The notes: generated from the sequence alone by a model not told the origin. Positions 7,531 to 62,795 are shown, counted from the first letter of the stretch. The stretch: 64,000 nt of DNA from an uncultured bacterium (GCA_963819815.1 CAWFXL010000001.1:1472001-1536000); one strand, 5' to 3'. Numbers and translations: made by a program.

Positions 7531-7860
7531 AAGCCCTTTTTTCTTCTCAAGATGTGTGCTTATAATAGCACATTTCCGTGTTTTTAAAAACGGTGGTATC
7601 ACCTTACCAGTGTTTAGATAATTTTTAAAGGGTTTCACAAATTTTTTGTTAGGTGATGCTGCTGGTAAGAAGGACCACCATGGTGCAAAATAGGCTCTAC
7701 GTTGTACAATGCATGGGATCTTTGCTGTCTTTGTTTTAGTACTTGGACCCACATTGCCATGTATAATAATACAGAAGTATTTATATTTGTCAAATTGTAT
7801 TAAGGTGGGGCAGGTATCTTTGATTACGATTGATTAAAGCAAAATAGAGGGAGGCTCTAC

Positions 7861-7988
7861 TTATTGGTTATTTTTCTGGTATAATCTAGTGCCCTTTTTA
7901 ACCAATAATTGGAAAATGTCGATTATTGGTTAAAGTTTTAGTGCGAATTTCTTAACCAATAAAAGCAAAAATGCGATTATTGGATAAA
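7861..7988. repeat. Operator-like array: a half-site plus two palindromes 54 bp apart
   Basis: TTATTGGTTA at 7861; TTTAACCAATAAT-N12-ATTATTGGTTAAA at 7897-7934; CTTAACCAATAAA-N12-ATTATTGGATAAA at 7951-7988. Confidence 0.75.
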
Positions 7989-14539: not shown

Positions 14540-14647
14540 CGCTTCTCCAGACTTGTTGCATATGCTTTCGTGTGGACTAATCATACTTCATACTGGCACG
14601 CTCTACAAGCTTTTTTCTTTTAAAAGAAGCTTAGGTTGGGCAAAAGA

Positions 14648-15382
14648 TTACAGTGAGAGATGTGGATCCTCATCTACCGCACATCCATTTCGGAGTAGTT
14701 CGTCAAGAGTATGGGTGCATATCGAAAACATATCTTTTAAGAGCTCTTTGTTCCGCACTGCCCCAAAATAATCTACGTTGTGTATTTCAAAAGATATAAG
14801 GTCTACATTTTCGGGAAATTTTGAGAACAACCATCTTTCACGATCTATGATTTTAAATGAAAAAGAATATTTCCTATTCTTATCGAGCAGATGGCGTAGA
14901 GAATCATTTTTTAGGATTTCTTTGACCAGAGGTTCAGGACTACCTTTGATGATGAAATGTGCATTGAAATGGGGATCGTCTGTTGCTATAGTACTCTTTT
15001 GGCCAGGGAACCAGCCTGAAAAAATGTTCGTTGGATAGATGGTGAACTTTAAAGAGCACGTACTGATGAAGGGGACTCTTATTCGCGTAATAGTACGGAT
15101 ATGTGGGTGTTTCCCACCAGTCCTTACCGTATAAGTATCAAGTATTATTCGCCAGGCATGATAAGGCAATATAACCTTTGCATGATGGAGAAAGCTACCA
15201 GGTTCATACGTGGCGCCGATTTCTTGGCTTAGTTCAGTCCATACTTCCTGGACGCTCGGCCCAAAAATTTTCTGAAGAAACTTCTTCAATATCAATCCTT
15301 TTTTAAAACACCTACTAATCGAGGAGAACCTGCAGATTAGTGATTTTTGTCTCTGAGTGTGAAGTACAATTGATCTTTTCAA
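14648..15382 (-). CDS. Hypothetical protein (DUF3137-like); true start probably near 15290
   Basis: Long ORF with 'FGPSVQEVWTELSQEIG', 'WRIILDTYT', 'TRIRVPF', 'DDPHFNAHFIIKG'. Confidence 0.6.
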   Translation of the reverse strand: MKRSIVLHTQRQKSLICRFSSISRCFKKGLILKKFLQKIFGPSVQEVWTELSQEIGATYEPGSFLHHAKVILPYHAWRIILDTYTVRTGGKHPHIRTITRIRVPFISTCSLKFTIYPTNIFSGWFPGQKSTIATDDPHFNAHFIIKGSPEPLVKEILKNDSLRHLLDKNRKYSFSFKIIDRERWLFSKFPENVDLISFEIHNVDYFGAVRNKELLKDMFSICTHTLDELLRNGCAVDEDPHLSL

Positions 15383-15393
15383 CTGCGATGATA

Positions 15394-15607
15394 TTCAATC
15401 CCGCGCTATCTGTCAAAAGGGCAATTTATAGCGCGGGATTGGGAGAGGTTCAATCTCGCGCTATAAATTTTGATTTTCAAATAATCAATCCAATCGACGT
15501 TATTGAGGGCCTCGTGTGGCTCTTTATTAAAAAATTCAATCCCGCGCTATCTTTGAAAAATGCTAATTATCCCGCGGGATCAAAGTTGGATCAACTCCGC
15601 GGGATTT
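15394..15607. repeat. Operator-like array of CAATCCCGCGCTAT half-sites
   Basis: 15396-15409 and inverted 15428-15441 (18-bp spacer); 15451-15464; 15537-15550 and degenerate inverted 15569-15582 (18-bp spacer); degenerate 15592-15605. Confidence 0.85.
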
Positions 15608-15696
15608 TTGGGATACTTGAGGAGGCCTTACCAGAAAGTCTCGAGGTAGCCTGTAAGCTGCGATAGGTAAGGGCTTTAGTACATGGTTTTTGTGTT

Positions 15697-15725
15697 TTGA
15701 CATTTTACAGCACATTATTTACACT
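15697..15725 (+). promoter_or_regulatory. Sigma70-type promoter of the tRNA operon
   Basis: TTGACA-17 bp-TACACT just upstream of tRNA-Val. Confidence 0.75.
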
Positions 15726-15752: not shown

Positions 15753-15828
15753 GGGCGGTTAGCTCAGTTGGTAGAGCATCAGTCTTACAAACTGGGGGTC
15801 ACAGGTTCGAGTCCTGTACCGCCCACCA
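15753..15828 (+). tRNA. tRNA-Val(TAC)
   Basis: Cloverleaf with GGGCGGT/ACCGCCC acceptor stem, anticodon loop CTTACAA, GTTCGA T-loop, encoded CCA. Confidence 0.97.
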
Positions 15829-15845
15829 GAGCCGCGAAAATATAA

Positions 15846-15920
15846 TCCTCGGTAGCTCAGTGGTAGAGCAAACGACTGTTAATCGTTAGGTCGCAGGTTC
15901 GAGTCCTGCCCGAGGAGCCA
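15846..15920 (+). tRNA. tRNA-Asn(GTT)
   Basis: TCCTCGG/CCGAGGA acceptor stem, anticodon loop CTGTTAA, GTTCGA, GCCA end. Confidence 0.97.
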
Positions 15921-15926
15921 TGATAA

Positions 15927-16004
15927 GGGGCTGTAGCTCAGTTTGGTTAGAGCGTCCGCCTGTCACGCGGAAGGTCGCGAGTTCGAGTCTCGTCAGCCCC
16001 GCCA
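15927..16004 (+). tRNA. tRNA-Asp(GTC)
   Basis: GGGGCTG/CAGCCCC acceptor stem, anticodon loop CTGTCAC, GTTCGA, GCCA end. Confidence 0.97.
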
Positions 16005-33608: not shown

Positions 33609-33823
33609 AAAAATTTGGCGCATTATAGGAATTTATAATGCGCCAAATTTTTGAATCTTTTTGAAAATTTGGCGCATTATAAAAAATTTTCATGATTAAT
33701 CCTAATGATCCAACTTTTCATCCAGATCGTTATATCAGAGGGGTTGAAAAAATTTGGCGCATTATAGAGTTTTATAGCGCGCCAAATTTATCTATTGACT
33801 AAAGAATTTTGGCGCATTATAAT
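33609..33823 (+). promoter_or_regulatory. Operator array (six AAATTTGGCGCATTATA-type half-sites) overlapping a sigma70 promoter
   Basis: Perfect 19-6-19 palindrome at 33609-33652; half-site at 33664-33681; 17-6-17 palindrome at 33750-33789; half-site at 33805-33821 lying inside TTGACT(33795)-17-TATAAT(33818). Confidence 0.88.
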
Positions 33824-33840: not shown

Positions 33841-35289
33841 ATGAGGGAGTCTATGATTATCGGAAGAAAAAGGGAAATAAGGCAGCTTGAAAGAGCATAC
33901 ACTGACAAGAAAGCACATTTTATAACGGTGTATGGTCGAAGGCGGGTTGGAAAAACCTTTCTCGTAAGGGAGTTTTTTTCAGAAAAAGAATGTACTTTTT
34001 TTCATGTAACCGGCGTGCACAAGGAAAAATTAGCAGCACAACTTGAAAATTTTGCTCGCTCAATGAGTAAGACTTTTTTTGCACAGGGTCCTTTGAGGGA
34101 GCTTTCTAATTGGAAGGATGCTTTTGATCTTCTTGATAGAGAAATTGCGCAAAGGCAAGGTAAGATAGTTCTTTTCTTTGATGAGCTGCCCTGGCTTGCT
34201 ACACCTCGGTCGAATATAATGGGGCAGATCGATTTTTTCTGGAATAATCGTTGGTCGGGCATGCCGAATGTTATTCTTATTGTGTGTGGTTCATCGGCAT
34301 CTTGGCTACTTAATAATATCATATACCACAAGGGCGGATTATATAATCGTACGACCACAGAAATACAATTAATGCCATTTGATTTGCACGAGACCGCTGA
34401 GTTTTTGCTCAGCAAGAAAATAAAGCTTGCTCATGAACAGGTTCTGAAGTTGTATATGGCTGTAGGTGGTATTCCCTTTTATTTGGATTATGCGGAGAAG
34501 GGATATACAATCCAGCAAATTATTCAGCAACTTTTTTTTGATGTTCGGGCACCTTTAAAAAACGAATATAGAAAATTGTTTGAATCTCTTTTTAACACAG
34601 CTGAAGCCTATCGGGAGCTTGTGGAGATTGTTGCTCGAAAAAAAGATGGTCTAGAGCGTTCTGAAATTATTAAGGAAGCGCAGTTTTCCACTGGAGGCCA
34701 TTTGACCCGTAGACTCAAGAGTCTCTGTGATGCAGGTTTCTTAAAAGAGTTCACTCCCTGGGGGAAACAGTACCAGACCTACTATAAAGTTATCGATGAA
34801 TTCTGTCTTTTCTATCTACGTTGGATAAAAGATGAGAACCATACTTTTGATCCAGATCATTGGATATTGCAGAGTCGGAGTCCTGCATATTATGCCTGGG
34901 CAGGGTATGCCTTTGAGTCGGTGTGTATGAAGCATATCTATCAGATCTCAAGGGCACTTGGCATAAAAACGGGGATAAAAATAGGGTCCTGGAAATATAT
35001 TCCTTCGGGGAATGAAGACCACGGCGCACAAATTGACCTGGTTATAGAGCGCGTAGATGATGGGATAAATCTTTGCGAAATTAAATATACGGAAAAACCA
35101 TTTTCCATTGATAAAAAATATGCAACAGAGCTTACCCATAAAGTAGAGCTCTTTACAAAAAAAGAACATAGTAAGAAACAAGTATTTCTTTCGATGGTTT
35201 CTGCAGGTGGACTAGCGAAAACAATGTACTCTGAAGAACTTGTGAGTGGAGTGGTAACACTTGACGATCTATTTAGATCACTTGGATAA
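33841..35289 (+). CDS. AAA+ ('archaeal-type') ATPase with central wHTH-like region and C-terminal PD-(D/E)xK-like domain
   Basis: 'IIGRKRE', Walker A 'YGRRRVGKT', Walker B 'LFFDELPW', 'VCGSS', 'GGIPFYL', C-terminal 'AFE..C', 'GAQIDLVIER.D..INLCEIKY'. Confidence 0.9.
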   Translation: MRESMIIGRKREIRQLERAYTDKKAHFITVYGRRRVGKTFLVREFFSEKECTFFHVTGVHKEKLAAQLENFARSMSKTFFAQGPLRELSNWKDAFDLLDREIAQRQGKIVLFFDELPWLATPRSNIMGQIDFFWNNRWSGMPNVILIVCGSSASWLLNNIIYHKGGLYNRTTTEIQLMPFDLHETAEFLLSKKIKLAHEQVLKLYMAVGGIPFYLDYAEKGYTIQQIIQQLFFDVRAPLKNEYRKLFESLFNTAEAYRELVEIVARKKDGLERSEIIKEAQFSTGGHLTRRLKSLCDAGFLKEFTPWGKQYQTYYKVIDEFCLFYLRWIKDENHTFDPDHWILQSRSPAYYAWAGYAFESVCMKHIYQISRALGIKTGIKIGSWKYIPSGNEDHGAQIDLVIERVDDGINLCEIKYTEKPFSIDKKYATELTHKVELFTKKEHSKKQVFLSMVSAGGLAKTMYSEELVSGVVTLDDLFRSLG

Positions 35290-35395: not shown

Positions 35396-35471
35396 GGGCC
35401 CATAGCTCAGCGGTTAGAGCAATCGGCTCATAACCGAGAGGTCCCAGGTTCAAATCCTGGTGGGCCCACCA
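35396..35471 (+). tRNA. tRNA with CAT anticodon, most likely tRNA-Ile2 (lysidine)
   Basis: GGGCCCA/TGGGCCC acceptor stem and GGCTCATAACC anticodon arm as in Ile2; lacks initiator features. Confidence 0.9.
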
Positions 35472-60742: not shown

Positions 60743-61939
60743 TTAATTTCTCTTTTCCTCTAAGATGTCGTGAATCAAGTGTCCTGAAGATTGCCAGCTT
60801 AAAACCGAAGCCTGTGGCCAGTGCTGGGTATCTGAACCACCATAGATAACGTAATTAGAAGAGTTTGATGTTTGAGTGATTGAGTTCCAGAATTGAATGC
60901 TCTTGAAAAAGTCTGGCGCAATCGTTTTGCTTGATTTAATTTCAACTGCAAGTGGATGGGGCTTTATATCAATAATCGCATCAATTTCATGACCTGTATG
61001 ATCACGCCAAAAGTACAGGTTTGGTGTTCGGTCGAGATTGAAAAATTGCTTATTCAAATCACTCATAATACAGGTTTCGATTAATGAGCCACGAAGATAG
61101 CTATGGGAAACATCGTCTACCGTGTTTAAACCAAGTAATGAACAGGCAAGTCCCGTATCTACAAAATATAATTTGGGTGTTTTGACTAGACGCTTTCCGT
61201 ATTTTTCATAGTAAGGCTGCACAAGAAATACGATATAGGAAGATACAAGTAATGAAAGCCATGCATTGACTGTATGATAGGAGATTCCAAGATCTTCAGC
61301 AATGGATGATAAGTTTAATAATTGGCCCGATCGGGCAGCACAAGTTATGATAAACTTTTTAAAGAGCAATAGATCCGTTATGTATTTAATCTGTCGTATG
61401 TCTTGCTCAACATAGGTTTCTATATAATTTTTATAGAGAATGCTTATAGGAACGTCCTGGCCATAGAGTTTTGGATAGCTACCCTTTAAGACATAATCCT
61501 CAATTCGATCAGCCAGTAGACTGGCTTCTCGGAGCTCCTGAATTGAAAGAGGGAAAAGCGTAAGCTTCGCTACTCTACCGGCGAGGCTTTGAGTAATCCG
61601 CTCATCGAGAGCGAAATTCTGCGAACCGGTTAAAATATAGCGACCATTCTTTGGATCTTCATCAGCAAGGACCTGGACATAGGAAAAAAGGTCCGGAGCA
61701 TGCTGTGCTTCGTCAATAATAATGCCAGTTTTACCCAAGAAGTCCTTTAGGAATCTTTTTGGATCGGCTGATGCAAGGCTCCGCAAGGTAAGGTCTTCAA
61801 GATTGACATAGGCGTGATCAGGAAATACGAGACGTGCAAGTGTTGTTTTTCCTGATTGCCGCGGTCCAAGTATGGCTACCACAGGGAAGTGCTTTGCTGC
61901 TTCTACCAACTGTTGATGCAAACTGCGTTTTATTATCAT
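60743..61939 (-). CDS. AAA+ ATPase with C-terminal DUF4143 domain (AAA_14/DUF4143)
   Basis: 'MIIKR', Walker A 'GPRQSGKTT', 'IIDEAQ', 'LTGS', 'SLAGR', 'KTPKLYFVDTGL', 'YFWRD..GHEIDAII...AVEIKS'. Confidence 0.92.
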   Translation of the reverse strand: MIIKRSLHQQLVEAAKHFPVVAILGPRQSGKTTLARLVFPDHAYVNLEDLTLRSLASADPKRFLKDFLGKTGIIIDEAQHAPDLFSYVQVLADEDPKNGRYILTGSQNFALDERITQSLAGRVAKLTLFPLSIQELREASLLADRIEDYVLKGSYPKLYGQDVPISILYKNYIETYVEQDIRQIKYITDLLLFKKFIITCAARSGQLLNLSSIAEDLGISYHTVNAWLSLLVSSYIVFLVQPYYEKYGKRLVKTPKLYFVDTGLACSLLGLNTVDDVSHSYLRGSLIETCIMSDLNKQFFNLDRTPNLYFWRDHTGHEIDAIIDIKPHPLAVEIKSSKTIAPDFFKSIQFWNSITQTSNSSNYVIYGGSDTQHWPQASVLSWQSSGHLIHDILEEKRN

Positions 61940-62198: not shown

Positions 62199-62312
62199 GC
62201 AATATTCCTTAGGAAAACGTGCTGATTTTCACGTTTTTCCAACGAATAACGTGTGAGGTGACTACGTTTTTCTAAGGAATATTGCGAGTTTCGACACGTT
62301 TTCCTAACAAAT
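62199..62312. repeat. Operator-like array: one inverted and three direct ~20-bp units, 32-33-bp period
   Basis: GCAATATTCCTTAGGAAAACGTG (62199-62221) is nearly the reverse complement of TACGTTTTTCTAAGGAATATTGC (62263-62285); related copies at 62230 and 62295. Confidence 0.8.
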
Positions 62313-62313
62313 C

Positions 62314-62795
62314 CATCTTGTGGAGGCACCAAAATTTCCTCTATCTGCCTATGCAGACACTGATACGTTTAAGGTTTTTCTCTTAGATGTAGGCTTGCTC
62401 GGGGCCCAAAGCTCACTTTCTGCCCGTACTATCATTGAGGGCGATCGCCTATTTACAGAGTTTAAAGGGGCATTAACTGAAAATTTCATTGCACAGGAAT
62501 TAATCGCGACCTCATCCAAGAAGCTGTATTATTGGAAAAGTGCGGGAACGGCAGAATTTGATTTTCTTCTTGAATTAGATCATGAAATTTACCCGCTAGA
62601 GGTTAAGTCTGGGGAAAGTACGAAAAAAAAGAGTCTGGTCATCTATGGCCAAAAAACCATTCATCCTTGCTTCTGCGCACTACACTGATGAATTTAAAGG
62701 CCGATGGCAAGATCATAAACTATCCTCTCTATCTTATAAGTCTTATACAGAAAAGTGTTCCCGATGAGAGAGTCAGGGAGTCGGTGAAAGATTAA
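62314..62795 (+). pseudogene. 5'-truncated, frameshifted DUF4143-type ATPase remnant (C-terminal domain only)
   Basis: 'PKFPLSAY..DTFKVFLLDVGLLGA...FTEFKGALTENFIAQEL...YYW...AEFDFLL...PLEVKSG'; no Walker motifs; continues in another frame after the A-run near 62651 ('...KIINYPLYLI'). Confidence 0.8.

Follow-up and report, generated by a model that had tools for sequence, protein, structure and literature searches.

Passages of PMC12988326 describe PDC-S01 and PDC-S27 as abundant single-gene candidates that join an ATPase to a PD-(D/E)XK domain, and state that most such defence candidates still await validation; passages of PMC3424549 list DUF234 and DUF4143 as PD-(D/E)XK families. Repeat arrays upstream of these genes are not mentioned in those passages of the two papers. 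Furthermore, "inverted repeat" and "operator" occur 0 times in the main text of the preprint that underlies the PADLOC candidates (10.1101/2024.01.29.577857), and a literature search on these ATPase families returned no published description of such arrays. In the genome studied here, a gene starting at position 33841 matches PDC-S27 (PADLOC; Pfam ATPase_2/DUF234) and other paralogues match PDC-S01 (Pfam AAA_14/DUF4143). Compared with these systems, the locus that concerns us, an array of alternating half-sites at 15394-15630, retains the upstream DNA alone and no gene.

Archaeal Orc1/Cdc6 proteins have their origin recognition boxes (ORB) beside their own gene (e.g., PDB 2qby and 2v1u). The PDC-S27 protein resembles them in its predicted ORC/Cdc6-like AAA+ and winged-helix fold, and in that inverted repeats adjoin the gene of the likely binder. 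Unlike them, it has an additional nuclease domain, and its sites stand evenly 27.5 bp apart over the promoter. Moreover, not all of the roughly 30 genes of this kind with private arrays can be origins in a single genome of 1.6 Mb, and the presence of 14 strictly defined arrays in that genome argues against a replication origin. Autorepressors with palindromic operators are similar in another respect, since the PDC-S27 inverted repeats overlap the -35/-10 region of the presumed regulator's own gene. The differences are that the half-sites here number four to six, follow one another at a constant 27.5 bp and each carry a -10-like box, that an ATPase-nuclease is the presumed binder, and that the orphan locus appears to have lost the regulator gene.

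The window, that is, the whole stretch of DNA analysed, comprises 64,000 nucleotides of an uncultured bacterium (GCA_963819815.1, CAWFXL010000001.1:1472001-1536000) whose genome measures 1.64 Mb in two contigs; positions below are counted from the first letter of the window unless otherwise stated. The array that the sequence-only reading had reported at 15394-15630 is real, with four exact or near-exact copies of a 14-mer and two copies matching it at 10 of 14 positions, all but one at the places given. Specifically, half-site 1 (15396-15409, + strand) is an exact CAATCCCGCGCTAT, half-site 2 (15428-15441, - strand) is an exact inverted copy, and half-site 3 (15451-15464, + strand) has one mismatch to CAATCCCGCGCTAT and continues into TATAAAT, being surrounded, as read by eye, by TTGGGA-17-TATAAA. 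Half-site 4 (15537-15550, + strand), again exact, opens a second unit 141 bp from the first. Half-site 5 was correctly seen as an inverted site, but we place it at 15570-15583 (- strand; degenerate, 10/14 by eye) and not at the claimed start of 15569; it contains the self-palindrome ATCCCGCGGGAT. Its partner, half-site 6 (15592-15605, + strand), is equally degenerate (10/14 by eye) and is followed by TTTTT. As determined by a repeat finder, the array thus forms two units, each in the order forward, inverted, forward, and its symmetry axes define two steps of 27.5 bp, one from 15418.5 to 15446 and one from 15559.5 to 15587.

Loose matches to the core are meaningless, since the window has 5 copies of CAATCCCGCGCTAT at up to 3 mismatches against 4.0 expected; the evidence that the array is no chance assembly is the presence of four copies with 0-1 mismatch within 155 bp. 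Elsewhere in the 1.64-Mb genome we found 4 other single CAATCCCGCGCTAT sites at up to 2 mismatches, none of them paired. The array is confined to a single locus, unlike a dispersed repeat element of the REP or MITE type with many genome copies, and its orientation alternates, unlike the tandem direct repeats in one orientation of plasmid-type iterons. A 108-aa ORF (15340-15666) spans the array; it has no Pfam hit, and its frame is broken by one-base gaps in the sister genome, G001. Relative to sites 1-4, sites 5 and 6 (15569-15606) carry matched changes, with CC in place of AG in one arm and GG in place of CT in the other, which preserve their mutual complementarity and render each nearly self-palindromic; these changes could be due to templated repair in a hairpin, or to a shift of specificity that preceded the loss of the gene.

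The array had been likened to a second one in the same window, and the likeness in geometry was borne out. The comparison array (33614-33821, + strand) lies before the PDC-S27 ATPase gene at 33841-35289 and consists of six TTTGGCGCATTATA sites, four of them forward, at 33614, 33668, 33753 and 33808 (offsets +54, +139 and +194), and two inverted, at 33634 and 33773, the latter with 2 mismatches. The forward offsets of the orphan array are +55, +141 and +196. Likewise, the axes of the comparison array at 33630.5, 33657.5, 33769.5 and 33797 give steps of 27 and 27.5 bp within units that are 139 bp apart. Its last half-site sits in TTGACT-17-TATAAT (33795-33823), just 5' of the gene. A MAFFT alignment of the two arrays was discarded because its register had slipped; apart from layout there is no clear homology, and by eye the inverted sites of both have AATTTATA..GCGC in common.

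The product of the gene at 33841-35289 is 482 aa long and matches Pfam ATPase_2 and, over its full length, PDC-S27 (PADLOC; E 3.7e-169); NCBIfam gave no hit for this ATPase or for the 213-aa protein encoded divergently from the orphan array. Residues D399, E413 and K415 are invariant in an alignment of 8 paralogues, and we read them as a putative PD-(D/E)XK motif. An AlphaFold model of the product (pLDDT 86.5) comprises an AAA+ domain, a winged helix spanning roughly residues 254-317 and, at the C terminus, an alpha/beta domain. In fold it comes closest to the archaeal ATPases 2qen and 2fna, and next to MalT and other STAND proteins and ORC/Cdc6; the match to 2qen extends to sequence (E 6e-6). 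The gene ends about 100 bp before a tRNA-Met gene (35396-35471), and the orphan array precedes tRNA-Val.

Downstream of its last half-site, the orphan array is followed by TGGGATACT and GAGGAGG (15609-15625, + strand), which we read as an extended -10-like box and the leader of the missing gene, and which is identical in G001 at 20 of 20 positions. As had been noted, the ribosome-binding site GAGGAGG (15619-15625) has no start codon: ATG, GTG and TTG are absent for the next ~60 nt, after which comes the promoter-like site of the tRNA operon, TTGACA-17-TACACT (15697-15725, + strand), outside the array. Neither short-word blastn nor three-frame translation revealed a remnant of a lost gene in 15606-15700. 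We call the array an orphan because of this GAGGAGG without a start codon and the absence of any ATPase remnant. The last axis lies 32 nt before GAGGAGG here and, in the intact locus, 44 nt before the start codon at 33841, indicating that the loss begins at about the start codon. The array is probably the relic self-operator and promoter region of a PDC-S27 gene deleted from this genome, which implies the former presence of an ATPase gene now lost; part of the relic would be reused as the promoter of its neighbour gene. The earlier proposal that it is the leader of a deleted gene thereby gains support from the family, whose arrays precede ATPase genes, from the retained -10-like box and ribosome-binding site, and from the absence of the surrounding insert in 7 of the 9 other genomes of the genus.

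Across the genome there are 32 ORFs of this ATPase kind, 30 of them at least 296 aa long, which fall into the two types ATPase_2/PDC-S27 and AAA_14 + DUF4143/PDC-S01. A genome-wide scan for strict arrays, defined as forward, inverted, forward triples of any 12-mer, returned 14 loci, each with a core of its own. Ten of them abut the start of an ATPase gene, and the remaining four are orphans, located on the first contig at 1418426, 1479896 (window position 7896), 1487395 (the array at 15394) and 1580705, with no ATPase likeness nearby as examined by tblastn at E up to 1e-3. With an array score, a crude detector, 14 of the 32 ATPase paralogues reached at least 4, compared with 1 among 110 other ORFs (200 aa or longer) picked at random. 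This sole background ORF (1018624-1019985 of the first contig, + strand), which is not among the ATPase paralogues, has an upstream array at about 1018290-1018650 with 5 copies of the core AAATGAGTCGA in both orientations. Proximity to a tRNA gene is no general rule, since only 3 of the 14 arrays lie within 3 kb of one.

The second orphan of the window (7856-7988, + strand) is built on the core TTAACCAATAA; it has four to five alternating half-sites with axes 27 bp apart and no ATPase gene. In G001 it has shrunk to about one half-site, apparently by deletion between repeats. Both orphans of the window retain TGnGATACTTGAG right after the last half-site, which we read as a putative extended -10 box and leader start of related lost genes. 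The 10-mer GATACTTGAG has 4 copies in the genome, two of which stand directly after the last half-site of these two arrays. Another private array of the window (62199-62313; core ACGTTTTTC.AA, with a 32-33-bp period) is flanked on one side by a full-length PDC-S01 gene of the AAA_14 + DUF4143 type (60743-61939, - strand) and on the other by a divergent ATPase fragment of 122 aa (62320-62688, + strand). The arrays of PDC-S01 genes seem to have a period of 33 or 65 bp, not 55 bp.

The pattern extends over the PDC-S27 family. The relatives of PDC-S27 that we collected (80 loci, 40-57% identical) come from Legionellales, Coxiellaceae, Francisellaceae, Chlamydiae, Rickettsiales, Verrucomicrobia, Dependentiae and others; 75 of them were scored, after 5 without 330 nt of upstream sequence had been set aside. 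An upstream array score of at least 4 was reached in 45 of the 75 loci and of at least 3 in 65, compared with at least 4 in 1 of 75 coding-region controls; the 30 relatives below 4 were scored with the same crude detector. Among the 45 loci, 95 of 115 same-orientation spacings were 53-57 bp. Axes recur every 27-28 bp, with at least three evenly spaced axes in 39 of the 75 loci, and cores differ between loci. The unit between the last two axes (32 units) consists of a locus-specific GC-rich core followed by (C)TTATAAT, and the top promoter-like site overlaps a half-site in 26 of the 34 loci that possess one. The two-unit form of the orphan and the 33609 array, with three half-sites in each unit, was seen again in the closest relatives (two loci). 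In one other genome of the genus, the only PDC-S27 copy also has a core of its own and the 55-bp spacing.

The orphan array agrees with this family in its axis spacing, its half-site form and its private core. It has the GC-rich core that leads into a TTATAAT-like box beside an axis: the sequence of site 3 is CTCGCGCTATAAAT, and that of the inter-axis unit, taken on the reverse strand, is AATCCCGCGCTATAAAT. The 33609 array also has the family form, with GGCGCATTATAAT where the orphan has CCCGCGCTATAAAT. The orphan differs from the family in its distance to a start codon; the last half-site begins 13-60 nt before the PDC-S27 start codon in 35 of the 45 loci (full range -9 to 170). The sequence-only reading was to be refuted if homologous arrays elsewhere were not followed by ATPase or wHTH genes. 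It withstood this check, since arrays of the same layout elsewhere do precede ATPase genes (45 of 75 relatives scoring at least 4), a comparison made on layout only; no array with the same core was found outside this genome and G001.

Indeed, the core proved private in every collection searched. The exact palindrome had 0 hits in the genome and metagenome contigs, and at up to 3 mismatches only this genome and G001 matched among 261 genomes of the order; the array as such was likewise matched in these two alone among 41 relatives searched. A relaxed 10+10 pattern gave 86 loci, of which the 80 examined were read as chance hairpins, mostly in GC-rich taxa; ATPase likeness was found near 1 of the 80, as a 57-residue match in a contig of 71% GC. 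Consequently no relative combining this core with an intact ATPase was found in the genome and metagenome contigs. None of the public sequencing runs contained more than 0.15 of the sampled words, and the words that were shared probably come from tRNA genes only.

A comparison of gene order upstream of tRNA-Val-Asn-Asp (15753-16004), which had been proposed as a check, places the array within an insert limited to two genomes. The order amidase, MreC, S49 peptidase, tRNA-Val is conserved and the tRNA cluster is present in 10 of 10 genomes of the genus, and the insert of about 1.07 kb (approximate borders 14623-15690), which lies between the S49 peptidase gene and the tRNA-Val promoter and consists of the divergent gene and the array, is carried by 2 of the 10, namely this genome and G001. 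In five genomes the S49 start lies ~90-210 bp from tRNA-Val, with a common motif, ACAAGCTTTTTT, that marks the left border. Two more have a different, unrelated gene between the S49 gene and tRNA-Val, which makes the spot before tRNA-Val look like a hotspot for insertions.

Within the insert, the array is less conserved between this genome and G001 (212/237, 89.5%) than the adjacent non-coding stretches (96/104 and 116/122). Half-sites 1 and 4 (14/14 each) and half-site 5 are unchanged in G001, and half-sites 2, 3 and 6 carry 3 changes each, so that 11 of 14 positions are kept. The full identity of sites 1, 4 and 5 and of the 20 nt to GAGGAGG could be chance at ~5% divergence, or a sign that some of the array remains in use. 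Between sites 2 and 3, the 9-nt loop (15442-15450) differs at 8 positions from its G001 counterpart and resembles its own reverse complement; it looks as if this hairpin loop had flipped.

The same history could be told differently, with the array as an empty docking or recombination site, the PDC-S27 genes as mobile cassettes and the orphans as precise excisions. That the gene is absent from about its start codon while a -10-like box and a ribosome-binding site remain would be expected of such an excision, and the frequency of orphans (4 of 14 strict arrays) together with GATACTTGAG just after the last half-site in two of them agrees with it. The family is patchy as well, with 11 copies of PDC-S27 in this genome, 1 in each of the two other sampled genomes of the genus and none at E up to 1e-20 in 23 genomes from other genera of the family. 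Moreover, the protein has a nuclease domain, and the closest relatives are scattered over amoeba-associated lineages of several phyla, suggesting horizontal spread. However, the intact gene at 33841-35289 has no second array or repeat flanking it, no recombinase is nearby, the decay of this orphan and the collapse of the other one in G001 fit plain deletion, and the shared 10-mer is explicable as a promoter remnant of related paralogues. We regard precise excision of a cassette as improbable, and plain loss of the PDC-S27 reading frame remains our preferred account.

The sequence-only reading had offered, as another possibility, that the array controls the divergent gene at 14648-15289 (- strand), which encodes 213 aa from a TTG start at 15289 and has weak likeness to DUF3137. 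This suggestion is partly right. A promoter-like site on the minus strand, TTGACA-17-TATCAT (15388-15416; 11/12), has half-site 1 as its spacer and faces the 213-aa gene, and both of its hexamers are unchanged in G001. Hence the outer edge of the array probably still supplies a promoter for this gene, as far as can be judged from sequence. The S49 gene has a promoter-like site of its own, TTGTAG-17-TATGAT, as read by eye. The 213-aa gene was found in the same 2 of 10 genomes of the genus; it belongs to a small conserved family and has 4 relatives in the protein collection. Of 191 tblastn-confirmed metagenome loci, 80 were kept; none of these 80 had an ATPase within 3 kb, and none of the 66 with enough upstream DNA had an array scoring at least 4. 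Because of these two results the array appears to belong with the ATPase family and not with the family of the 213-aa gene. The other refuting condition of the sequence-only reading, that the array always accompanies this gene, receives a split answer: in both genomes that have the array it does stand next to the gene, so that the two are inseparable there, but the gene's relatives elsewhere do without it.

A stronger version of this idea is that the array now regulates the 213-aa gene, and perhaps the S49 gene too, with a paralogue acting in trans or another factor bound to half-site 1. The 11/12 promoter with its conserved spacer, the joint presence of array and gene in both genomes with either, and a pool of ~30 paralogous ATPases as possible binders are in keeping with such regulation. 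Nevertheless, it appears unlikely: the gene's relatives have neither arrays nor ATPase neighbours, the core is common to no other array in the genome, sites 2, 3 and 6 decay in G001, and the promoter needs a single edge of a 237-bp array. A relic whose edge serves as a promoter is the reading we retain.

The suggestion that the array controls the tRNA operon found no support. Downstream of the array the tRNA genes are preceded by a promoter-like site of their own, and we see no role for the array in the operon because the 7 genomes of the genus without the array, 5 with a short intergenic stretch and 2 with a different insert, keep the tRNA cluster. These observations also bear on the possibility that the repeats act as RNA, as leader, attenuator or terminator for the tRNA-Val-Asn-Asp operon or for the divergent gene. 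Terminator-like hairpins do occur on the + strand, at 15423-15469 followed by a T-run and at 15569-15606 followed by TTTTT, a switch between pairing of sites 1:2 and 2:3 is conceivable, and the predicted fold reaches -80.6 kcal/mol with a z-score of -4.4. Since any inverted repeat folds well as RNA, this z-score says little. Despite hairpin and T-run, the array does not qualify as an intrinsic terminator or attenuator because there is no upstream gene on the + strand and the changes in G001 are not compensatory; among the 6 changes in sites 2 and 3, none compensates another and none falls at paired positions. In a search of Rfam 15 only three tRNAs passed, and the best match of the array, ncr1175, reached 21.4 bits (E 0.29), where the gathering score is 60.

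An RNA pairing signature was also looked for across the family and rejected. In 151 inverted repeats from 75 loci, the arm mismatches comprised 54 G-T, 36 A-C and 128 others. Wobble pairs were not favoured (54 vs 36, p 0.07; a cruder count of 124 vs 71 had included unpaired flanks), and 128 of the 218 mismatches would break an RNA helix. In addition, the bulk of each family array lies upstream of the promoter-like site. A function as RNA is thus very hard to credit, and because the mismatches are mostly helix-breaking and the arrays mostly upstream of the promoter-like site, we read the arrays as putative protein-binding DNA.

Most simply, the binder would be the encoded ATPase itself, with its winged helix and ORC-like fold. 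In a co-variation analysis of protein segments with half-site similarity (n = 32 loci), the winged helix gave a partial r of 0.03, a value that 698 of 2000 permutations attained. The highest value, an r of 0.295 for residues 456-475, lies below the family-wise 95% level of 0.313, so that among the 32 loci, once overall identity is allowed for, no 20-residue window significantly tracked half-site similarity. Variability in the helix-turn-helix blocks is above average (entropy 2.35 and 2.27 vs a mean of 1.68), which is compatible with private specificities and proves nothing.

We propose the following course of events. The product of the lost gene would have been an AAA+ ATPase of the ORC/Cdc6-like kind that also had a winged helix and a PD-(D/E)XK nuclease domain. 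As in intact members, where alternating inverted half-sites with axes ~27.5 bp apart form an array that wraps the gene's promoter, the encoded protein may have bound the half-sites as an oligomer and shut off its own promoter. The array would have come with, or beside, the 213-aa gene in the ~1.07-kb insert upstream of tRNA-Val, and the ATPase reading frame would then have been lost from about its start codon on. Once the cognate protein was gone, the sites would have been left unbound and drifting, and the consensus-like promoter on the minus strand probably still works and would drive the 213-aa gene, perhaps together with that of the S49 peptidase.

A more speculative thought, for which we would claim little likelihood, is that the arrays go beyond repressor sites and are assembly platforms, on which the ORC-like ATPase-nuclease oligomerises along evenly phased half-sites, each with a -10 box, so that its "address" DNA restrains the nuclease until infection intervenes; orphans would then be decoys or sinks for paralogues, or empty cassette sites. 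If this were true, this intracellular bacterium, with a genome of 1.6 Mb, would have in its ~30 private combinations of protein and DNA a large set of mutually non-interfering sensor-address pairs.

By itself, the orphan is a case of ordinary genome decay and of modest weight; what makes it valuable is that the loss can be dated and that it led to a pattern seen across the family. The notable part is the class, that is, private arrays on a 27.5-bp step with TATAAT-bearing half-sites, standing before two common candidate defence families. PDC-S27 and PDC-S01 are, according to passages of PMC12988326, among the commonest candidate anti-virus genes of bacteria and archaea. After gene loss, an array may outlive its gene, keep a usable promoter and then erode, and annotators and motif hunters should expect orphan arrays. 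For the family, a private array on a 27.5-bp step over its own promoter would offer a handle on the control of these genes and perhaps on what they sense.
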